Positions 1,101-42,459 of a DNA stretch of 45,922 nucleotides are shown here, one piece after another (positions within the stretch are counted from its first letter, which is position 1; each line of letters opens with the position of its first letter). A model generated the notes under the pieces. It was given only the letters and a program-made list of their open reading frames with translations, was not told the origin of the DNA and did not search any database. A program made the translations under genes and the position numbers. This DNA comes from Atractiella rhizophila (lineage: Eukaryota): contig MU271526.1 of assembly GCA_021432655.1 (NCBI GenBank), positions 1 to 45,922 on the forward strand, read 5' to 3'.

Positions 1101-4100
1101 ATGTCAGATCCTGAAAGGGATTCACCTGTGGACGAGAAGAACACTGAGATTGAGAATGCGAAACACACTCAGGGTCCCTCGGAAGTAGAGAAGGAGACTA
1201 TTGAGGACGAGAAGAAACCTGCAGAAGAGAAGAAGCGGAGGTTCGACGTGAGTTTCCACTCAACACGTCCCTTCCACCTTCTTTTGGCGGACTTAAAATT
1301 CATGATTTTTCCATTGCAAACAGAAAACGTTTGAGAGTAAAGAAAAAGGTCCCAAGCACACTCTTATCGATATATCGCGGATCGAGCTGAAGGCTGAGGA
1401 CTTGTACGATAAGGAAAAGGTTGATTTGGAGCAGGTGGGGATGGATGACGTGTGGCAGTTGCTCCAGTGAGTTTGCGTTCATCATTCTTTTCGCAAGAAA
1501 TGGGAATGGGGGAGTGATTTTTGGCCTTGGTCATTGTTGGTCAACGTGGTCATGATGATTTCCCTTTTTGTGTTCAGATGCGACGAGAAGGGATTGACGA
1601 ACGAGGAGGTCAAACGTCGAACCGAAATCTTCGGACCAAATGAGCTGGAGTCGAAGGAACAGAACCCTTTCCCTCCAGTTCCTTTCATTCATGTGGAACC
1701 CTCTCTCCTGGGTCATGGAGGGAGCCGCTTTAGTCGCCATCGCTCTCTCGAACGGTGGAGGTAGCGCTCCGGATTGGCAAGACTTCGTCGGAATTGTCCT
1801 CCTCCTTTTCGTTAACTCAACCATCGGTTTCTACGAAGAACGCTCCCCCCGGAGCGCTGTCAAAGCTCTCATGGAATCTTTGGCTCCTAAGGCGAAGGCG
1901 AAGAGGAACGGCGAGTGGAACGAAATCGAGGCTTCTGAGCTCGTACCTGGAGACGTTGTTTCCTTCAAAAGCGGTGACATTGTCCCCGCTGACTGCCGTC
2001 TATACGATGCCATCGAGGTGTCTTGCGACCAAGCTGCTTTGACCGGTGAATCTCTTCCCTCCAACAAGGTAGCCGGAGACCAGTGTTTCTCCAGATCCGT
2101 CTGCAAGTCTGGAGAGGCTGAAGGTGTCGTCATCTCGACCGGTGCCAACACTTTCTTTGTTAGTCTTTCCTTGCTCACTTTACTCATTTACTGAGTTATT
2201 CTGTAATGAATAGGGAAAGGCAGCCACTCTTGTCGGAGCAGATGATGATACCACAGGGCATCTTCAGAAGATTCTTGGTCAAATTGGATCTTTCTGCTTG
2301 GTTTCGATTGGAATTTTCGTCATCGCCGAAATTTTCGTGCTTTACGCTGGTTTCCGGTTAGCAGTCTGATCCCCCAATCGAGAATAGTTTCTAAAATGTC
2401 GTGCAGCTACTCTTACCGCCGCGGTCTCAACAACATTCTCGTCCTCTTGATCGGTGGTATTCCCATCGCCATGCCCACTGTCTTGTCTGTCACGCTCGCC
2501 GTCGGAGCTCAGCAGCTCGCGAAGTACAAGGCGATTGTAACCCGTATCACTGCTATTGAGGAGTTGGCTGGTGTCACCATCCTTTGTTCCGACAAGACTG
2601 GTACGCTCACCACCAACAAACTGACCATCGATCGTTCGACCATCAAGCCCTACAACGGTTATAGTGCCGACGAGGTCATTCTCCACGCAGCTTACGCTTC
2701 GCGAACTGAGAACCAAGATGCCATCGATATGTCGACCATTAGCGCATTGGGTGAAAATGGAACCGCCAAGGCTCGTGAAGGTATCACTCTTCTCGACTTC
2801 AAGCCCTTTAACCCTGTTGACAAGCGAACGGAAATCACCTACATGATTAACGAGTCCGGAAAGGTGATGAGAGCCACGAAAGGAATGACTGGAAAGATTA
2901 TCGGACTTTGCACTAGGAACAAGACGGAGGATGTCGAGAATCAACTCGAGGAAGACGTCGAGGAATTTGCTCGCCGTGGTCTTCGTGCTCTCGCTGTCGC
3001 CATTGAGGAAGTCACCTCTGGAGTTAAGGATGGAGAAGGAAACGGATTGGAGCTCATCGGTCTACTCTCCATCTTTGATCCTCCTCGTCAAGATACCAAG
3101 CAAACCATCGATGATGCTCTTGCTCTCGGAGTCAAGGTCAAGATGGTTACCGGTGATCAGCTCGCTATCGCGAAGGAAATTGGCCGTCGTCTCGGATTGG
3201 GTGACCACATGTACCCCGCCAAAGTGCTCAAGGAAGGACCTCCTGCTGGTGGAAAGCATATGAACTTGGACGATATGATTCTCGATGCCGATGGATTCGC
3301 TGGTGTCGACCCTGAACACAAATACGAAATCGTCAAGCGTCTTCAAGGTCTCGGATATCTCTGCGCCATGACTGGTGACGGAGCTAACGATGCGCCTGCC
3401 CTCTCTCGTGCTAATGTCGGTATCGCTGTTGAAGGTGCCACTGACGCCGCGAGAGGCGCTGCCGATATTGTCTTGACGGAACCTGGTCTGTCCACCATTG
3501 TTCACGCTATCAGGCAATCACGTATCATCTTCCAACGTATGAGGAACTACTCCATCTACGCTTGCGCTGTCACCATCCGTATCGTTCTTGGTTTCTCCGT
3601 CATGGCTTTCGCTTTCAGGTTCGATTTCCCTCCGTTCATGGTCTTGATCATCGCTCTTCTCAACGACGGTACCATCATGACTCTCTCCCTCGGTAAGATT
3701 GCTTCACGTTTATCGTTTCCACCTGTGCTGAGGCCGGTGATGTAGATCGTGTGCTGCCTTCTAACGAGCCTGATCACTGGGATCTAGCCGAGATTTTCGC
3801 TCAAGCCATCGGCTATGGTATCTACCTCTCAGTCTGTACCATTGTCCTTTACGTCGTTGTCATCAAGACCAGCTGGTTCGAGGATACCTTCGGTGTTAAC
3901 CCTGTCAAGGGCGAGAACAACCCCGACGTGTAAGTCGACTGGTTCGGTTTTGTGACATTCGCTGATGAATTGCCAGTCACATGATCATCTATCTTGAAGT
4001 CGCTCAAATCTCCCAAGCTTTAATCTTCATCACTCGATCTCACGGATTCTTCTTCATGGAGCGCCCATCTTTCGCCCTCCTCGGAGCTTTCGGCAATGCC

Positions 4101-4523
4101 CAATTGATCTCATCCATCATTGCCGCTTACGGTGACTGGGGATTCACTGACATCCGCTCCATCTCCGCAGGCTGGATTGGTATTGTCTGGGTCTGGAACA
4201 TCGTTTGGTTCTTCCCTCTCGACCTGATCAAATTTGCCATGAAGCACGCGATCAGGGCTTATCAGGCTCGCGCAAGGCCCGATCATACCAGTCCCATCGA
4301 CCCCGACACTGGTATTCCTCTCACCAGGACCACTTCGAGGGCCGCGTCCATCAACGCCAGCTTGTACTCAAACAGAACAGGTTTCCTCAGGAAGGCCAAA
4401 AAGACGCTTCACCTCGGTGGCAGGAAGCTCAAGATCTCGGACAACGAGCTCCGCCGCTTCTCAAGCCACCAGGCTCAAGTCGCTGGAGCGGCTCTCACCG
4501 GCTCTGGCTCTCGCTCGAATTAG
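1101..4523 (+). CDS. PMA1: Plasma-membrane P3A H+-ATPase, 7 exons (1101-1247, 1324-1466, 1578-2158, 2214-2356, 2407-3692, 3746-3929, 3977-4523); apparent extra C at 1671-1673
   Basis: Motifs [57 protein letters not shown] introns join the ORF pieces in frame except for the +1 shift in [18 protein letters not shown]. Confidence 0.96.
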
Positions 4524-7739: not shown

Positions 7740-8666
7740 CCGCCGCCTGCCCGTATTCTTGGAGACAGTCCAAAGCATCTTCCCACGACCATTCCTCGAC
7801 CGAAGCGAAAGGTTGAAAGGCGGAGAGGATTCCATGGTGAAGTAGCGGTTCGGAAAACTGTTGCGGAGGGGGCGAGGGAGCTGTGCCAGAAGCTTCGCCA
7901 CTAGTTCTACTCTTCCGAGTTATAGTGTCTTGGAAAGATTGAATGTTTATGAGTCCTAGACACGACGAAAGTGATCCACAGACGGTCCGGACTTGACCTT
8001 GCCAGTGAGTGTTAAATTGCCTCGGCGTTTGGGCCCTGGAGGAATGGGATGATCAACTAGCCTGGACAGGAGTAGGGCACGCAGGAGCAAGGGCGGAGGG
8101 GATGGCCGTTTGAGAGAGCTTTGGTATTGGTGGAGCATAAGGGCATGAGCAGTGCGAGCGAGGCGATGCGAAATTTGGGATTCGGAACCGAGCGGGTCGC
8201 ATTTCGCTCGTCGAGAGACATTGCCAGCAGATTGCATCAGACAGGACTTGCAGTTCTTTTATAATGAGGTGTGCCTTCAGTAGACGCGGGACTCATCATT
8301 TGCCAGCTGTCTTCATGTTACTAATTTCTTCCAATGTCAATGGAAAAAGGTCGTTTTCGTGGCGCTGGCTACGCTGCCATGAAGCTTGAGGAAATGTCCA
8401 TTGGAATGCTGCACTGGTTGCTTGTTGCTCAAACGAAACCGATTCTACATATGTCTCGACCATCCACAAACTGGAATCGGAAAGTATCAAAGAACGTTCA
8501 CGCCAACTACCCAAAGTATTTGATTATTATTTAAATTGAACGAAGACAGGGATTAGCCGTGCTTTAAATGTCCTTGCTGAAGCAAACCAAAGGGAATATG
8601 GAAAAAAAGGAACGCAATCTATTGTTTCTGACTTCCGGTTTCGTTCACTCTACTGGGTTGGAGGAA

Positions 8667-10522
8667 TTAGAGAAGATCTCCCTTCCCAGCTTCCTTGCAC
8701 CTAGCCACGAGTTTCTTCACTTCCTGGCTTCGAGCGTGAGAGGTGACGAGAACAGCATCAGGCGTGTCGACAACAACCTATTAGGCAAAGTCAGACAGGC
8801 TACTAATCATGAAATAGGCATCACATACCACATCATCAATTCCAAGAATGGCAATAGTCCTACCCGTGCAGGGAACGACGATACCACCAGCCACTTTCTC
8901 CGTAACGACAAGCCCATGATCACCAAGCACCCTCGGGCCTCCCTTCTCAGCTGGCAACATCTCAGCAAGAGAAGCATAGTCTCCCACATCGTCCCAACCG
9001 AACGTTGCTGGAACCACAGCAACTTTGCCCTCAGCAGCCGCAGGTTCGGCGACAGCGTTGTCGATTGCAATCTTAGGAAGGGTAGACCAGATGCTCTTGA
9101 AAGCCTCCGTCTTTTTGGAGGAAGAAAGAGACTTGTCCTCGAGGATGGCCGCTAGCCGAGTGAGACCAGAGTGGAGTTCAGGAGAGTATTTCTTGAGCAG
9201 ATCGAGCATGACAGTCGCCTTGCACACAAACATACCTTCGTCCTCCCATCAATCTACAATTCAAAAAGCACACAAGCAGGCTACGCACCAGCATTCCACC
9301 TATAATCTCCCCGAGCCAAATACTTAGACGCTGTCTTCGAATCCGGCTTTTCCTTGAATTGGAGAACTTGGCGTGCGGTGGGAGCCCCGTGGATCCCTAG
9401 CCGCTCTCCGATCTTGATGTAACCGAAACCAGTAGCTGGAGAGGACGGGGCAATCTGGGGCTCTTGTCAACGTGGCAACTTTGTGGACAGAGAGAACGTA
9501 CACCGATGGTGACAAGATGGCCCTCCCTCGCAGTTATGACAGCTTCTTCTACGGCATGCTCAAAGGCGTCCGCTCCAGAAATGAAATGATCAGCAGCAAA
9601 CGAGCCAAACACATTCTCGGGATCTGCGTACTCGTCAGTTTCGCTCAGAGGGCTATTAGTGAAAACAAACCTCGAAGGGCCAAAACGGCAGCGGCGAGAC
9701 CAATGGCAGCGGCAGACTCTTTCGCGCTGGGCTCGGTGAGGATGTTGTCAAGAAGAAGATCCGGAAGCTGGGATTGTACTGGTGAGGCGTGTCGGACCCC
9801 AGTGACGACCATGAGCCTCTCCTTGCCCGTCAAAGGTAGGAGACGATCTTCAGGAACATACATCAAAATGTAATTCTCACAACAAAGGTGAATAACATAC
9901 CCCAAGTGGCTTGAATAAGGGTTCTTCCCCTGCCAGTTAGGTCGAGCAAAAATTTGGGAAAGTCTGATCTGCTCAGCGGCCATAACCTCGTTCCGCTCCC
10001 TCCTGCGGGAACAACGGCCCAAAATTTGCTGATGTCGTGGGAGGGGCGGACCTGGAAGGCCCTCGTAGCTGGACTGGGAGGAGGTTGTAAGGAGAGAAGA
10101 GGTGGGTTAAGCAATTTGGGCATCTACTTCCAATCAGTCATCCCAATCGTGAAGGCATGAAACGGGACGAACATTGGGCCCCACAGCTGGTCCAACACGA
10201 GGAGAGGATTGAGGCGAGATCAAAGGTGTCCCCATCAACGGATTGAAGGAACCAGGAGGTGTAAGTCCTGTCGTAGACTGGGGAGAGACTGGGGACAGTG
10301 TTTGACCCCTATCGATGGGGACGGCATTCTGATTGAGGATCGCGTTGCTCAGCTGGCGCTCGAGATTGGCGTTGGAAGCTTTGAGCGCTGCAGTTTCAGC
10401 TCGAAGCGACGAGATGTCACTTTGCTGCGGGAATCATCAGGATGGACTGATTTGGGGGGAAAGGGCCTCACAGATTTTTCGAGCATAGAAATGATGGTCT
10501 GAAGCATGGCAGAGTCCGACAT
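8667..10522 (-). CDS. Mannose-1-phosphate guanylyltransferase (GDP-mannose pyrophosphorylase) of bacterial ManC/GMP type, ~8 exons, with N-terminal coiled-coil extension
   Basis: Spliced motifs PAGGSGTRLWPLSR..PKFLLDL, EPSAKESAAAI, AADH, TGFGYI, FKEKP, WNAGMF, IAIDNAVAE, WDDVG, VVVDTPDAVLV...GDLL*. Confidence 0.92.
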
Positions 10523-10835
10523 GTTGGGCTGGTCCTGGCTGATTTGAGGTCTGAGGCTGTTGGGAGGGCGTCGTCGTGGAAGGGGTCAAAGAACGTTGAG
10601 TCCGACTTGGCCTTATAAAAGAGGACGACGCATGCCTTTCACCCGGGGTTCCACTAACACTAAGAATTCATGCACGTCACCTAATGCGGGAATTCCTTCG
10701 GCGCACTCTGCAGCCTTCCATTGGGAGATATAGGTTCAACGGACTACAGTATGGACCCTGCCGTTGTCCGTATAAGGGGGCACGAGAGGTAAAGAGTGGA
10801 TTTGCAATTGATTTTTGATCAGATACTAGTATCCT

Positions 10836-11416
10836 TTACTTTCCGTTCTTCTCCAACTCGTTCAACTTTTGCTCCAACTCCTGAGTTTGGACCTTCTGCT
10901 CCTCCAACTTCTTTCTCAAGGCGGCAATCTGCTTCGCCTCCTGCACGCATTGGGAATCCATGTCAGCGCATCCTCAAACAGCATTACTACAGCAAAATCA
11001 CAGTTCCACTCGGTCATCCAGCTAGGGTGGATATAACAGTGGGCAACAGCGACATTTGACAGTCCCCGAACCAAAGCAGGAGAAGAGAACACGTACTTGG
11101 TCCCTGGCAAACTTGTTCTCCTCCGCCTGCTCCTTCTTGCTGAAGGTGCTAGAATGGGCGGTTGCACCTGTTCCAGGGCAAATGAGTAATAAAGGTAGCA
11201 CTACTCAAAAATCCTACCGGAGGAGCGACCGACGTGGTCATCAGGACCCCTGTGAAAGTTAGACCGTCACCTTCGGAGACAAAGAAGCGTACCTGGTAGA
11301 CACAGTCAAAACTCAGCATCCATCAGGGGAAGAACAAACCTTGGAGAAATAGAGGTGCTAAACATTCTTGGTAACCGCGAGAAGGTTCTGAGCGTTTGGG
11401 CACGGATGAGCGACAT
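10836..11416 (-). CDS. INH1: Mitochondrial F1Fo-ATPase inhibitor IF1 (94 aa), exons 11416-11340, 11249-11218, 11167-11097, 10940-10836
   Basis: Spliced product MSLIRAQTLRTFSRLPRMFSTSISPRGPDDHVGRSSGATAHSSTFSKKEQAEENKFARDQEAKQIAALRKKLEEQKVQTQELEQKLNELEKNGK. Arg/Ser-rich presequence, IF1 core F-x-K-K/R-E-x-A-x-E-x-x-F/Y-x-R, C-terminal coiled coil. All intron phases agree. Confidence 0.88.
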
Positions 11417-12064
11417 TTCGTCTTGCTGGTTTGCAGTGGTTTGTTGACAGGATGGAGTGAGCATTCTCCCCAAGGGGGGCATGCTGTACCGACCCGCAAA
11501 TCAAACTGGCCTGACAAACATCCTCGTCTAGGTGGGCCATCATTGTTCCAGAGGCCATCATGATATTATGAGCTGTTGCACTGAAATTTATCCCTCCAAA
11601 GTCGGTACAGCGATCTGGCAAGTTAACAGTCAACCGACACGGCATCATGTCAGTGCTTAGGCCACAGGCTTCTCCCACGCTCATTCCGAAGCCACTAATC
11701 AGAAGTCACTCCCTCCAGCCAGCCTCGACTTGAACAGTTGAAGTAATTCCATCACACCAACGTTGTCGTTTCTCGTTTTTCTGGTGCCCTTTGAACAACG
11801 GCCGCTGGTGATAGCTGAGCTTCCGCATGATGGCAGCCTGATAGTCAACTCGGGCTGAACTTATCAATGCAAAATGTCAAGAACCAGTTGATGAGTTGTA
11901 GTATACAGATGTTTTGGGAAAGTTATGCTGCGTCCACGACATCGAGGCACTTCATGGACTTGTCTTCCGAAGGTCCTGCCACCAGTCCGAGCTGTCAACC
12001 AAAGCTCCCACTCCCTTCGGCTGTTTTAGGGAGAAGGTCTCAGTCCCATCTCCTCGACACCTAC

Positions 12065-13745: not shown

Positions 13746-14866
13746 TCAGCCCAACTTCGCCATTAAATCAGGGTACAGCTCTTCTAGGACGGCCAGGATC
13801 TCATTCCAACACTTTTCGGCGAGCTGAGTTCCTTGATCGGACGCAGCCAAACCGCCTTCACTATTTCAAATATCCCCATCAGATTTATTTCGAAGAAGGC
13901 GGTGACAAGGGAAGGACAAACGGATAGACGGTTTGATGTTCCAAATACCTCCCATGCGTCTCCTTCCCCGCTTGTGCAGCGTGGACCAAAGTCTTTGCTC
14001 CCTCCTCCGTTGTTCTCCCGATTAGCCATTGTATGAACCTGAGCACCAGCGGAACTCCTTCTTCCCTCGACAGAAGTTCGGATTTGCAAAATCCTGGCTG
14101 AACAGTATTGACCACTACGGCTACGGCCGTCCGTCCTTCCGCTGCTTGAGCAATATATCGGAATGCGAATTGGAGCAGCAATTTCGAGACGGAATACCTT
14201 TCCGGCGTCATTCTGCCGTTCGGTTTGACGTTGAGAGCAGACAAGGAATTTGAGGCTTCCTTTTCAGGGAAAATTGCGTGCATATGAACGTCCGAACTGA
14301 CGAACGTGAGGTTGGCCTTCCCCTTCTGATCTGCAGTTCGTCGAAGAGAAGGAAGTAGAAGGATTCCTAGCAGTGTGGTGGAGAGGGCATTCACTTGCAA
14401 GGTGCTCTCCCATCCATTGGGTGAGACGGTCCAGTTAGTAGTCGCGAGTCCAGCGTTGAGAATCGCGGCGTCAAGGACGGGCAGCTCCTGCTCGACGCGA
14501 GCGGCAAAGCTGATCACGCTGGCGAAGGAGAGCATGTCGAGTTCCCATACCGATATTGTAGGCTTAAAAGACCGAGTGTTGGTGCTAGAAAGCAGCGAAG
14601 ACCGTGCATGTTCCCCTTTCAAGGTATTTCGGACGGCAAGGATCAGGTGTGAGCACCCCAAGTTCAGGGCGTGTTGAGCAGCGGCGAGACCAAGACCAGT
14701 ATTAGAACCTGTGATACTGTAGTTGGCTTATCAGATGGATAGGTTTAACGAAGGAAGAGGACATGACGAGCATTACAGTCTTGCCTCTGAAAGAAGTTTC
14801 GGGAGGGAGGCTGAGATGAATAAACGGTTGTTTGAAGAGCTTGAGAATAGCGGTAAGATTGGACAT
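13746..14866 (-). CDS. Short-chain dehydrogenase/reductase (retinol-dehydrogenase-like), 3 exons
   Basis: ITGSNTGLG Rossmann motif, ILAVR, LDM, ILNAG, VSS, YSVSK catalytic motif, PGFCKS. The last exon ends WNEILAVLEELYPDLMAKLG*. Confidence 0.92.
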
Positions 14867-38593: not shown

Positions 38594-40275
38594 TTCCTCT
38601 TAAATTTGTCTGACTTCCGCTCTCTGTGTCCAGAACCCGAAGGCTCCAGCTCGTCTCGCATGAGCTTTTATATAACTCTCTACCCAGGTGCCCACGACAG
38701 TTTTGCTCGAGATACAGTAAGATTTCCGATGGCAGACCCTAGGTTATTGTGCCTTGGGGATATTCGAAGTGTGCTATTCGTATTCGCAGCTGCCAGTTTT
38801 GGCCTTCATTAGGAAAACATCTTTGAAGGAAGTTGGGCATTGTGGCTTTCCGTTCTTGATGCGTTCTCAATACCGTGAAAGAACATTGAAAGCGTATGAG
38901 CGTGTGGCCGAGAGATAGATGACAGAGGGACGAAAGTTGACAAGATGGCTCATGGTACTACTAGGTTGCCAGATTAGCAGAGCAGAAAGCGAAAAGGCAA
39001 GCACGAAAGTCTCCCATTCGGTGGCGACTAACGTTTGTCATCGTTCAATGTTTGCCTGTGAGCTTCTGTCGAAGTGGTAGCGACGGGAATCGGGAAGCGG
39101 GAAGCGGTAACGGTAACCAGAAAAGAACATCCTACCATCGCCTGTGCTCCTTCACTCAATGTCAAAACCATCGGTGGCTGTGACAACTGAGAAAAACCAC
39201 AGAAATTGACGATAGAAATAAAGGTCTTTGATGATTGCCAATTCTTGCAAACAGAAGGTGTCAGTTCCCGCTTTGGGCGAGATGTGCAACACGTTGGGCC
39301 GATGGCACCACTTGACATCAGTGGAGATATTGCTGGAGTTGTGATGGTGAGCAGGCTGATCTTTAGGCCGACATCTTAACTCAAGAAGATGCAGCTCTCT
39401 GAGCGCGGACGTTCGTGTCCTGAATATTTCGACAGCGTGAGCCGCAGAAGGTACAAAGTTTCTGAGGGGAGTCTACACTAACCTCCTTCGCCACACGGTA
39501 AAGGTGACGTGATGGATTCCGTCGCACGCAATATTCCATGACACGCATTGGAAATTTTGGGTCAAAAGTAACAGCCGTCAAGATTCAAGGTGCAGCCTTA
39601 CTTGTAGGTGCCTTATGGCGCTTCATGCTTTTGGCAACGCAATGCCTTTCCACATGCCGCTCGATGAACCAGACAAGACGCAATCTGGGAGAGTCTGAGC
39701 AGCGTTCAAAGTATCCTGAGATAGACTATGCTTAGAGCGCGTACACTGATGAGCGTGCTTTTTCAAGGCACCAACCGTGAGTGGATCTCGGTGATATGCG
39801 TCACTCTCATCGGTATTGTGAAAGAGAGATATGTCGCTCTAATTGGGGGATCTACGCGGTACTCGCTAATAATGGGAATGGGCGAGATCATCCCTCCAAT
39901 TGATTGTCATTACTGTCGATGCATCAATGCATTTCAGCTCATATCTGCTGTGAAGCTGCTTCGGGTAGGATCACACACTCATCCTTCTTCCCAGTACCCA
40001 AACCAGGCCTAAATGGTGTCGTATTGGCGACTCAGATAGAAGATACGAACCCATAACACTTTAAATCAGTTCTGGGTTGGATACCAACTCCCTCACTCTT
40101 CCTTCCTGGCAATCGCTTCCAAGTTGCAATCAGACCCTTGCAGTAAACTCAACAGCTCCATCACTCTTCGGCTGAATTATGACAGCGGCCTGCAAAGAGA
40201 GATGCAGATGAGTCCCGCTTCTTTTACGCGTATCTCCTCCCGCGATCGAAAGGAACGAAAAAAGTACTTCACCAG

Positions 40276-42459
40276 ATGAGCGCCTCTCGCTACGCTCCGC
40301 ACGTCGAGAACTCCGCGACGCTCCTGCTGCCCGCCTCCAGCAGCGGCAAGCCACTCGTCTTCCTCAACCCCGTCCAAGAGTACAACCGGGACCTCTCCGT
40401 CGCCTGTCTCACCACATACCGTCACATAAGGCAGAGGGAGCTCCAGAAGTCCACCAAGAGAGACGACTTTTGTTGGAGACCTTATGTCCTCGACGCGCTG
40501 TCTGCTAGCGGGCTGAGGGCCATCAGGTATGCGAGGGAGATCAAGGAGTGTAGGTTGGTGGTCGCGAACGATCTGTCGAGGGAGGCAATGGAGGTCATCG
40601 AACGAAACATCTCGCACAATCGCGTCGCTAATCCAAATAACAATACAAATGGAGACACAAACGCAGAAGGAGCGGAAGGAGAACAAAAGAAGAAGGCGTT
40701 TTATACGCCTCAAGAGCGCCCAGCCTACGTCGTGCCCTCGCTCTCAGACGCCCTCGTCCTCCTCTCCCTCTCCAGAATCAAACCAAACCCCTCCTCCTCA
40801 TTCCCTTACACAGGTCCTACAGCCGGAAAAGCCTTCGATGTCATCGACCTCGATCCCTACGGCACCTGCGCACCTTTCGTCGACGCAGCGGTGCAGAATG
40901 TCGCTGATGAAGGGCTCCTGATGGTCACCGCAACCGATATGGCTGTTGCAGCGAGCACAAATCATCACGAGAAATGCTATGGGAACTACGGGGGTTTGCC
41001 AACGAGGAAGGAGTGGTGTCACGAAGCCGTATATATCCACTTTCTCCACTGTGACTGCTCTTGGAGGGCAGAAACTAATGGGTAACCAATGAGCAGGCAA
41101 TCCGCATGATTTTAAACACCCTCGCCACCTCCGCCGCTCGATACGGAAAGACCATCCGCCCTTTGCTCTCCCTCAGCATCGACTTCTACGTCCGAGTTTT
41201 CATTCGCGTCTCCCCCTCACGACAAGAAACGAAGGAGCTGGCATCTCTCACCTCTCTGGTGTACACGTGCGACCATTGTCATGCCCATTCGTTGCAGCCG
41301 TTCGGGAGAACAAGTTTGCCTCCCTCGGAAGAACACGTGAGTGGAGAGGCGGATGGGGAGGGGGAGGGAAAGAAGGGAAAGAAGGTCGCGAAGGGAAAGG
41401 GGAAGGGCGGTATCAAGTTTCACATACCTGCTGGACCCCCGGTCGAGACGACGAGAGGAGGAGGGAAATGTGAAGAGTGTGGAGCTGGCTTTCACGTTCG
41501 TCTCTCTCTTCTCTTCCCTTCTTGTCATTATCCTGTCAATCTCCAAGGCGCTGTTGGCTGCATAGGGACAGAAAATGCTCATAACTGATGCCCGTAATAG
41601 GTTGCGGGCCCCATGTGGACGGGAAGACTGCACGATCCCGAATTCGTCCAAGAAGTTTTGGAGACCGTAAAGGCGCGGGAGTCAGGTTCGTCCACGCCCG
41701 CAACCTCAACTGCAACAGGAGCAGAAACGTCAGCGACGGCGGGTGAGGATAATGGAAATGCGAATGGAGAGGAGGAGGAGGAACCGCTGAAACCTTTTGG
41801 GACGACGGAAAGACTAAAAGGGATGCTACAGATTGCTGCTTCCGTACGTCTCTCCCCCACTATGAAGAGATGGACTAAACCAATACTCGATGGTTGGTGG
41901 ACATATATAGGAGATTGAGACGCCTTTCTATTTCAGTCCATCGAGGATTTCAGGGATGTTCCACTCTCGCACTCCGCCGCTAGAGACCGTAACGTTCGTC
42001 TTCACCTCTATCCTCTTCAAGTGTACCAATATGTAAGTGACACGTATGTGCAACAGATCCGCCCTCCTGCATGCGGGCTACGCCGTCTCACGCTCACACG
42101 CCCTCCCCGGTTCTCTCAAGACCAACGCGCCAGTTTCCTTCCTAAACGACGTCTGGCGTTTCTGGATAAAAGACTCCGAACCAGTCAACATGTCCAACAT
42201 CAAGGAGACCTCTCCCGCACGGCAGTTGCTCCTGAAACCGATAACTCACGAAGTGAATACGAAGCGGCACGAGAAGGTCGAAGAGTTGCTTATGAGCAGA
42301 GTAAAGATCACTAAGTATCCAGCTAATCCGGAGCCTGGATGGGGACCTGGGAAAAAGGCGGTGGAGGGGAAAGGGAGGAAGAGGAGGAATGAAGAGGGGG
42401 AGGGGGATGGAGGATCTAAAAAACCGAGATTGGGGGAAGAGGTTGTAGCACCTTCATGA
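40276..42459 (+). CDS. TRM1: tRNA (guanine26-N2,N2)-dimethyltransferase, 5 exons
   Basis: VFLNPVQEYNRDLS, LDALSASGLRAIRY, VVANDLS, FDVIDLDPYG, LLMVTATD, PLLSLSIDFYVRVF, CxxC pairs, GPMWTGRLHD, SHALPGSLKTNAP, NPEPGWGP. Confidence 0.96.

Follow-up and report, generated by a model that had tools for sequence, protein, structure and literature searches.

Two abutting minimal introns in the INH1 gene of Atractiella rhizophila: a probable case of two-step removal at a zero-nucleotide exon

Splicing at a zero-nucleotide exon, i.e. at a pivot where an acceptor is directly followed by a donor, is already known in fungi: in the basidiomycete Cryptococcus neoformans, recursive splicing at such an exon has been reported for the gene BOT1/CNAG_07884 (Burke et al., bioRxiv 10.1101/224170), and in Schizosaccharomyces pombe, two instances of zero-length exons have been reported, for example in the 336-nt intron of SPNCRNA.445 (bioRxiv 10.1101/226894). 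The initial annotation of the locus that we describe here had traced AG|GT pivots to long animal introns, an account that is incomplete in view of these two fungi. Related arrangements are the stwintrons, including those of the [D1,2]/[A2,3] type, which are fungal, are removed in two U2 reactions and are associated with intron definition (PMC5587772, PMC6616335, PMC7138796); abutting introns are classed separately in one of these reports, as being excised by recursive splicing (PMC6616335). Also comparable are very short exons, of which Coprinopsis cinerea has 13, 57 and 27 with lengths of 1, 2 and 3 nt, respectively (PMC12230235).

Here, we have analysed a stretch of 45,922 nucleotides of the Atractiella rhizophila genome (contig MU271526.1; hereafter, the window), where the first intron of the gene INH1 consists of two abutting units of 47 and 43 nt. 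The likeness to BOT1 is threefold: the host is a basidiomycete, one annotated intron corresponds to two introns that meet at a pivot, and the full junction is found in the mRNA; the differences are that the BOT1 units measure 210 and 165 nt, with junctions and branches described for both steps, whereas INH1 shows the junction of the 3' unit alone, in one contig end. As in the S. pombe case, an acceptor adjoins a donor inside a fungal intron and the product is fully spliced, but SPNCRNA.445 is a non-coding snoRNA locus, reported as conserved across Schizosaccharomyces, whereas INH1 is a coding gene. The order of the junction that we have found corresponds to 3' recursive splicing (3'RS) as it is defined for dystrophin; there, it is described in very long human introns, whereas both INH1 pieces are minimal introns (PMC4829307). 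Animal ratchet points likewise lie in very long introns, and the INH1 stretch has 90 nt in all. In stwintrons, a splice element of the outer intron is split by the inner one, or both introns overlap by one G, and neither is the case in INH1 (PMC5587772). Like the INH1 pivot, the 1–3-nt exons of C. cinerea leave next to nothing between adjacent short introns, but the INH1 exon has no bases. What INH1 adds is the small size, together with one trace of an intermediate: the fungal zero-nucleotide exons described in the two preprints sit in introns of 336–375 nt (bioRxiv 224170, 226894), and no fungal case with two minimal units was found in a literature search of partial coverage.

The two units of the first INH1 intron

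The minus strand between positions 11416 and 10836 of the window is a four-exon gene that encodes a 94-aa IF1. The product is identical to P0001, an Atractiella rhizophila protein that is recorded at NCBI as a hypothetical protein, and it matches the Pfam family IATP with 41.5 bits (cut-off 25, E 1.9e-10); from this family, we take the gene to be INH1. Its elements, all on the minus strand, are listed below, followed by other genes of the window; X1, X4, X20 and X21 denote RNA runs.

11340–11416 (−): coding exon 1, 77 nt from the ATG, comprising 25 codons and 2 nt of Arg26
11293–11339 (−): intron unit 1, 47 nt, with donor GTTTGT, branch candidate TTTGAC and acceptor CAG
11292–11293 (−): pivot (zero-nucleotide exon) as seen in the sequence, acceptor CAG followed directly by donor GTACGC
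11250–11292 (−): intron unit 2, 43 nt, with donor GTACGC, branch candidates TCTAAC (−10, near 11259) and GGTGAC (−18, near 11267), and acceptor CAG
11218–11249 (−): exon 2, 32 nt, single copy in the genome
11168–11217 (−): second intron, ordinary, 50 nt, joint in X20, X1 and X4
11097–11167 (−): exon 3, 71 nt, inhibitory core of IF1
10941–11096 (−): last intron, 156 nt, without a YAG|GT pivot, joint in X20, X1 and X4
10836–10940 (−): exon 4, coiled coil and stop codon
8440–10571 (−): eight-exon gene with 7 introns of 47–53 nt, covered by one X1 contig
1598–4523: P-type ATPase, presumably Pma1-like
13885–14727: short-chain dehydrogenase
40183–42459: Trm1-type tRNA methyltransferase

The coordinates and motifs that the initial annotation had given for the two units at 11339–11250 are borne out by the sequence, each unit having a donor, a branch motif and a CAG. 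Its reading of the frame holds as well: the 94-aa open frame is obtained only with all 90 nt removed, and the removal of unit 1 alone truncates the product, with a stop after 36 residues; the same stop is reached when unit 2 alone, or neither unit, is removed, and in both half-spliced forms it lies upstream of two further introns. The public protein model is correct, and the pivot is without effect on the protein.

Exon 1, which is covered by contigs of runs X1 and X4, is a presumed mitochondrial presequence, judging from its position and composition. The first intron splits the codon of Arg26, a residue that we assume, from a cleavage motif, to lie at about the end of the presequence, in a region that aligns poorly. 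The INH1 locus is single-copy in the 51-Mb assembly, and exon 2 is still single-copy in a genome search where up to 3 mismatches are allowed.

In unit 1, the branch candidate TTTGAC (A at 11306, −14) is preferred over GCTGAG (−21), because the 7 RNA-verified introns of the neighbouring gene have branch-like motifs at −10 to −16. These introns measure 51, 53, 47, 47, 53, 49 and 47 nt, and one of the 47-nt introns opens with GTTTGTT, as unit 1 does. The neighbouring gene itself (8440–10571) has a weak Pfam nucleotidyl transferase match on one piece (E 0.25, below the cut-off) and is possibly, as a guess, a mannose-1-phosphate guanylyltransferase. Across the genome, an intron-like pattern has 8,254 matches at lengths of 41–61 nt, against 2,434 for the reversed pattern, and 1,847 against 2,461 at 80–100 nt, the reversed pattern being only a rough control. 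The length of unit 1 is typical, and that of unit 2 is at the short end: intron-like units of at most 43 nt account for 4/100 and 15/128 in two sets, and the branch A stands no farther than −10 in 7 of the 128.

Three other structures for the 90 nt have been considered and rejected. A hidden microexon would require one of the other in-frame AG/GT-or-GC pairings inside the stretch, all of which need a second intron of 31 or 21 nt with a poor donor; in addition, exon 2 continues directly into exon 1 in a contig of run X21. A tandem duplication of one intron is not indicated, since units 1 and 2 appear no more alike in global alignment than other introns do, with 39/101 and 43/101 other intron-like units scoring as high. 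A stwintron is incompatible with the arrangement, where both units are complete, no splice element is interrupted and no base is shared.

The comparison with other species has been confined to distant relatives. A word-index protein search for orthologues returned only P0001, and a family search of the genome for IF1 found none, because introns interrupt the gene. The 36 other proteins found are 29–54% identical, the best reaching 54% over part of its length; the 8 metagenome loci that were fetched are all distant and have other intron positions, four of them representing two yeast-like IF1 genes whose single short presequence intron lies elsewhere, and the remainder being one bacterial gene and three that seem animal-like by their long introns. 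No close INH1 orthologue was found among these 36 proteins and 8 loci, and the same 8 distant loci lend no support to the erosion of a microexon at the INH1 pivot.

RNA contigs and the order of removal

The RNA data are contigs, a form in which rare products are dropped; 24 runs were available, and 4 of them (X1, X4, X20 and X21) were compared with the segment 8400–11700. In runs X1 and X4, positions 11248 and 11339 are joined across a gap of 90 nt that is bounded by GT..AG, at depths of 14 and 20.3; these joints leave the bases between the exons unspecified, and the loose end of a contig in X21, a more divergent sample, runs from exon 2 into exon 1 with no base between them. The full junction 11340^11249 is thus present in 3 of the 4 runs (X1, X4 and X21), and it uses the donor of unit 1. 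The X21 contigs are 90–99% like the window at 8400–11700 and carry the same INH1 junction; a diverged strain or sister lineage exists, according to these contigs.

Run X20 is the deepest, with 17,229 and 21,781 on the two later INH1 joints; it is without cover of exon 1 or unit 1, possibly through a filter hole, and hence yields no ratio to the mature form. Behind place 11252, an X20 contig has a loose end, the only one listed at the start of exon 2 in this run, whose 8 letters equal window positions 11296–11303; together with the 3 letters common to both acceptors, 11 letters match the predicted junction 11293^11249, where unit 2 has been removed, and this 11-mer occurs once on the plus strand of the window. 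The removal of the 43-nt unit alone is therefore seen in one contig end, in X20 only (1/4 runs), for which no depth is given, and the full junction is not the only one on record. There is direct but thin evidence that a few molecules, at least, have the internal donor GTACGC joined to the final acceptor. The contig includes 11 nt of unit 1 and ends close to the branch A that is predicted at −14; such an end fits a lariat intermediate that halts the reverse transcriptase and equally fits a chance read end.

In the observed order, the 3' unit is the first to leave, and what is regenerated is an acceptor, not the donor of the ratchet order. The junction expected of the latter order, 11340^11292, is unlisted in all 4 runs, of which X20 is without exon 1 cover and the others have depths of 14–59. 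The two-step removal that was initially proposed has thus received an intermediate, in the one contig end, but in the 3'-first order and not as a ratchet; the second step, i.e. the removal of unit 1 after unit 2, is absent from the observed junctions. With respect to a zero-nucleotide exon, we have found that the acceptor abuts the donor in a sequence that is absent from the mRNA, that the outer exons are joined directly and, thinly, that a junction uses the internal donor (the 11 letters of the X20 contig end).

Chance and the search for similar structures

The likelihood of such a pivot arising by chance was estimated with dinucleotide shuffles of the intron interior, in which the outer donor and the last 20 nt were kept fixed. 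A branch with a YAG|GTRHG pivot and both units of at least 40 nt arose in 10 of 40,000 shuffles, a pivot under looser rules in 35/40,000, and a bare YAG|GT in 486 of 40,000. In the 45.9-kb window, searched on both strands, the only match of a relaxed two-unit pattern, which was written to fit the INH1 site, is the INH1 site. The pivot is beyond chance for one intron and not across the thousands of introns of a genome, where a handful of such cases is to be expected.

Genome-wide, an intron-like unit is followed directly by GTRHG at 118 sites (reversed pattern, 75) and by GTRHH at 406 (189), a ratio of 0.29, so that donor-like starts after intron-like units have no genome-wide excess of G at +5; with one base between the unit and the donor, there are 67 matches (reversed, 42). 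A second unit of 40–62 nt is present at 4/75 GTRHG sites against 2/60 controls (Fisher p 0.69), where the 75 are the distinct sites from 100 listed of the 118, with near-duplicates dropped by eye, and the 60 controls come from 100 listed of the 406; it is also present at 3/40 one-base sites (of the 67). With a second unit of 36–100 nt, the listed sets hold 9 GTRHG sites, 5 controls and 4 one-base sites. The stricter pattern of branch, YAG|GTRHGY and branch has 14 matches, 9 of them distinct, against 6 in the reversed control, a figure close to the rough background of ~11 for the strict centre pattern (about 5,800 × 9/128 × 7/256). The enrichment of YAG|GT pivots that a genome scan had been suggested to reveal was not found, neither in the two-unit counts (4/75 and 2/60) nor in the strict ones (9 distinct and 6 reversed), and none of the patterns searched gave a genome-wide excess of two-unit structures; the strict patterns would miss the INH1 site itself, owing to its GTTTGT and TTTGAC, and hence they limit the class and do not count it.

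Two further pairs of back-to-back intron-like units have been noted, one of 57 + 56 nt (contig C287, 42530–42624, locus L065, with a copy on contig C616) and one of 36 + 51 nt (contig C174, 24865, locus L050), all in the assembly G000; by their sequence, they are candidates for further zero-nucleotide exons. Directly after intron-like units, the donor-like GTACG, GTATG and GTGCG are often found in what appears to be coding exon, and the majority of the sites fetched resemble the start of an ordinary exon; an AG|GT at the start of an exon seems to be common, and apparently tolerated, in this genome.

Routes of removal and their alternatives

Taking these results together, we consider it probable that the 90 nt are two abutting U2 introns of normal size, which at least some transcripts lose in two ordinary reactions. 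In the first step, the internal donor GTACGC would be used together with the last acceptor and the 43-nt unit released, as in the one contig end; the CAG of unit 1 would then stand against exon 2, and what remains would be a standard 47-nt intron, to be removed in the second step. With its working donor, normal branch and CAG|G, this leftover would behave like any ordinary intron in splicing, which would make the route productive. The likely underlying cause is intron definition in a genome where introns cluster at ~41–61 nt, and an internal donor would be harmless only if the leftover piece is a complete intron. The two steps yield the same mRNA as a single cut of 90 nt, because the exon between the units has no bases. 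The two-unit arrangement is best explained as a way of removing the intron, and not as a switch.

A bolder form of this reading, which we hold only tentatively and regard as rather doubtful, is that the two steps, with the 3' unit first, are the principal or even an obligatory path, as a spliceosome confined to ~41–61 nt would see two minimal introns. If it is true, the INH1 pivot would be the zero end of a series of 0-, 1-, 2- and 3-nt exons in basidiomycetes, and two spliceosome footprints would touch, making the site a minimal natural substrate for the ordering of adjacent spliceosomes; INH1 would also test intron definition at its limit, and single annotated introns of about twice the usual length could conceal a pivot. 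As the stretch has 90 nt, with ordinary-sized units in a highly expressed gene, it is easy to assay for the two half-spliced forms and the two lariats.

The explanation that competes best with the two-step removal, unlikely in our judgement but to be taken seriously, is that of one ordinary 90-nt intron that is removed in a single step, with GTACGC as a rare cryptic donor whose use leads to a dead-end product with a premature stop. A single removal of 90 nt agrees with the public protein model, and INH1 also loses its 156-nt intron, which has no pivot, hence long introns are removable here; joints at the level of noise are visible in X20, where an alternative 159-nt joint has a depth of 7.55 against 21,781 (near 0.03%), and the two-unit structures are not enriched in the genome. 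A caution also comes from short human introns, for which one report describes recursive use as the minor route, those of less than 1,000 nt with recursive lariats having preferred conventional lariats (PMC10156609). Against a dead end speaks the remnant itself, with its proven donor, a branch at the usual distance, CAG|G and a common length, as does the rarity of branch and pivot together in the shuffles.

That the half-spliced forms are a regulated switch, feeding nonsense-mediated decay and thereby tuning the level of IF1, is a very improbable alternative. It draws on the premature stop that both forms carry upstream of two further introns and on splicing-linked decay as reported for S. pombe prp10 (bioRxiv 226894), but the runs that reach exon 1 (three, at low depth) show the full junction only, and a literature search of partial coverage found no report of splicing control of a fungal INH1; for this proposal of the initial annotation, then, no evidence was found. 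Still more improbable is an artefactual origin of the X20 contig end in the library, by template switching across CAGG, a 4-letter direct repeat common to both acceptors, with the pivot never used, since, for all that it is a short loose end in a single contig, the deletion is exactly a GT..AG unit with a consensus donor and branch, in a region whose folding is unremarkable and gives no reason for skipping (z 0.38; 126/200 shuffles fold as well).

Apart from the first intron, the 156-nt intron has two features of its own. The G of a TAG at 10987 is also the first base of the weak donor GTAATG, which opens a 47-nt terminal piece; this overlap has the geometry of a [D1,2]/[A2,3] stwintron, with no supporting joint, and neither path yields the observed 156-nt junction. 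The same intron ends in a tandem acceptor, CAG GAG (10936–10941), and the 159-nt alternative form seen in X20 would lose one residue.
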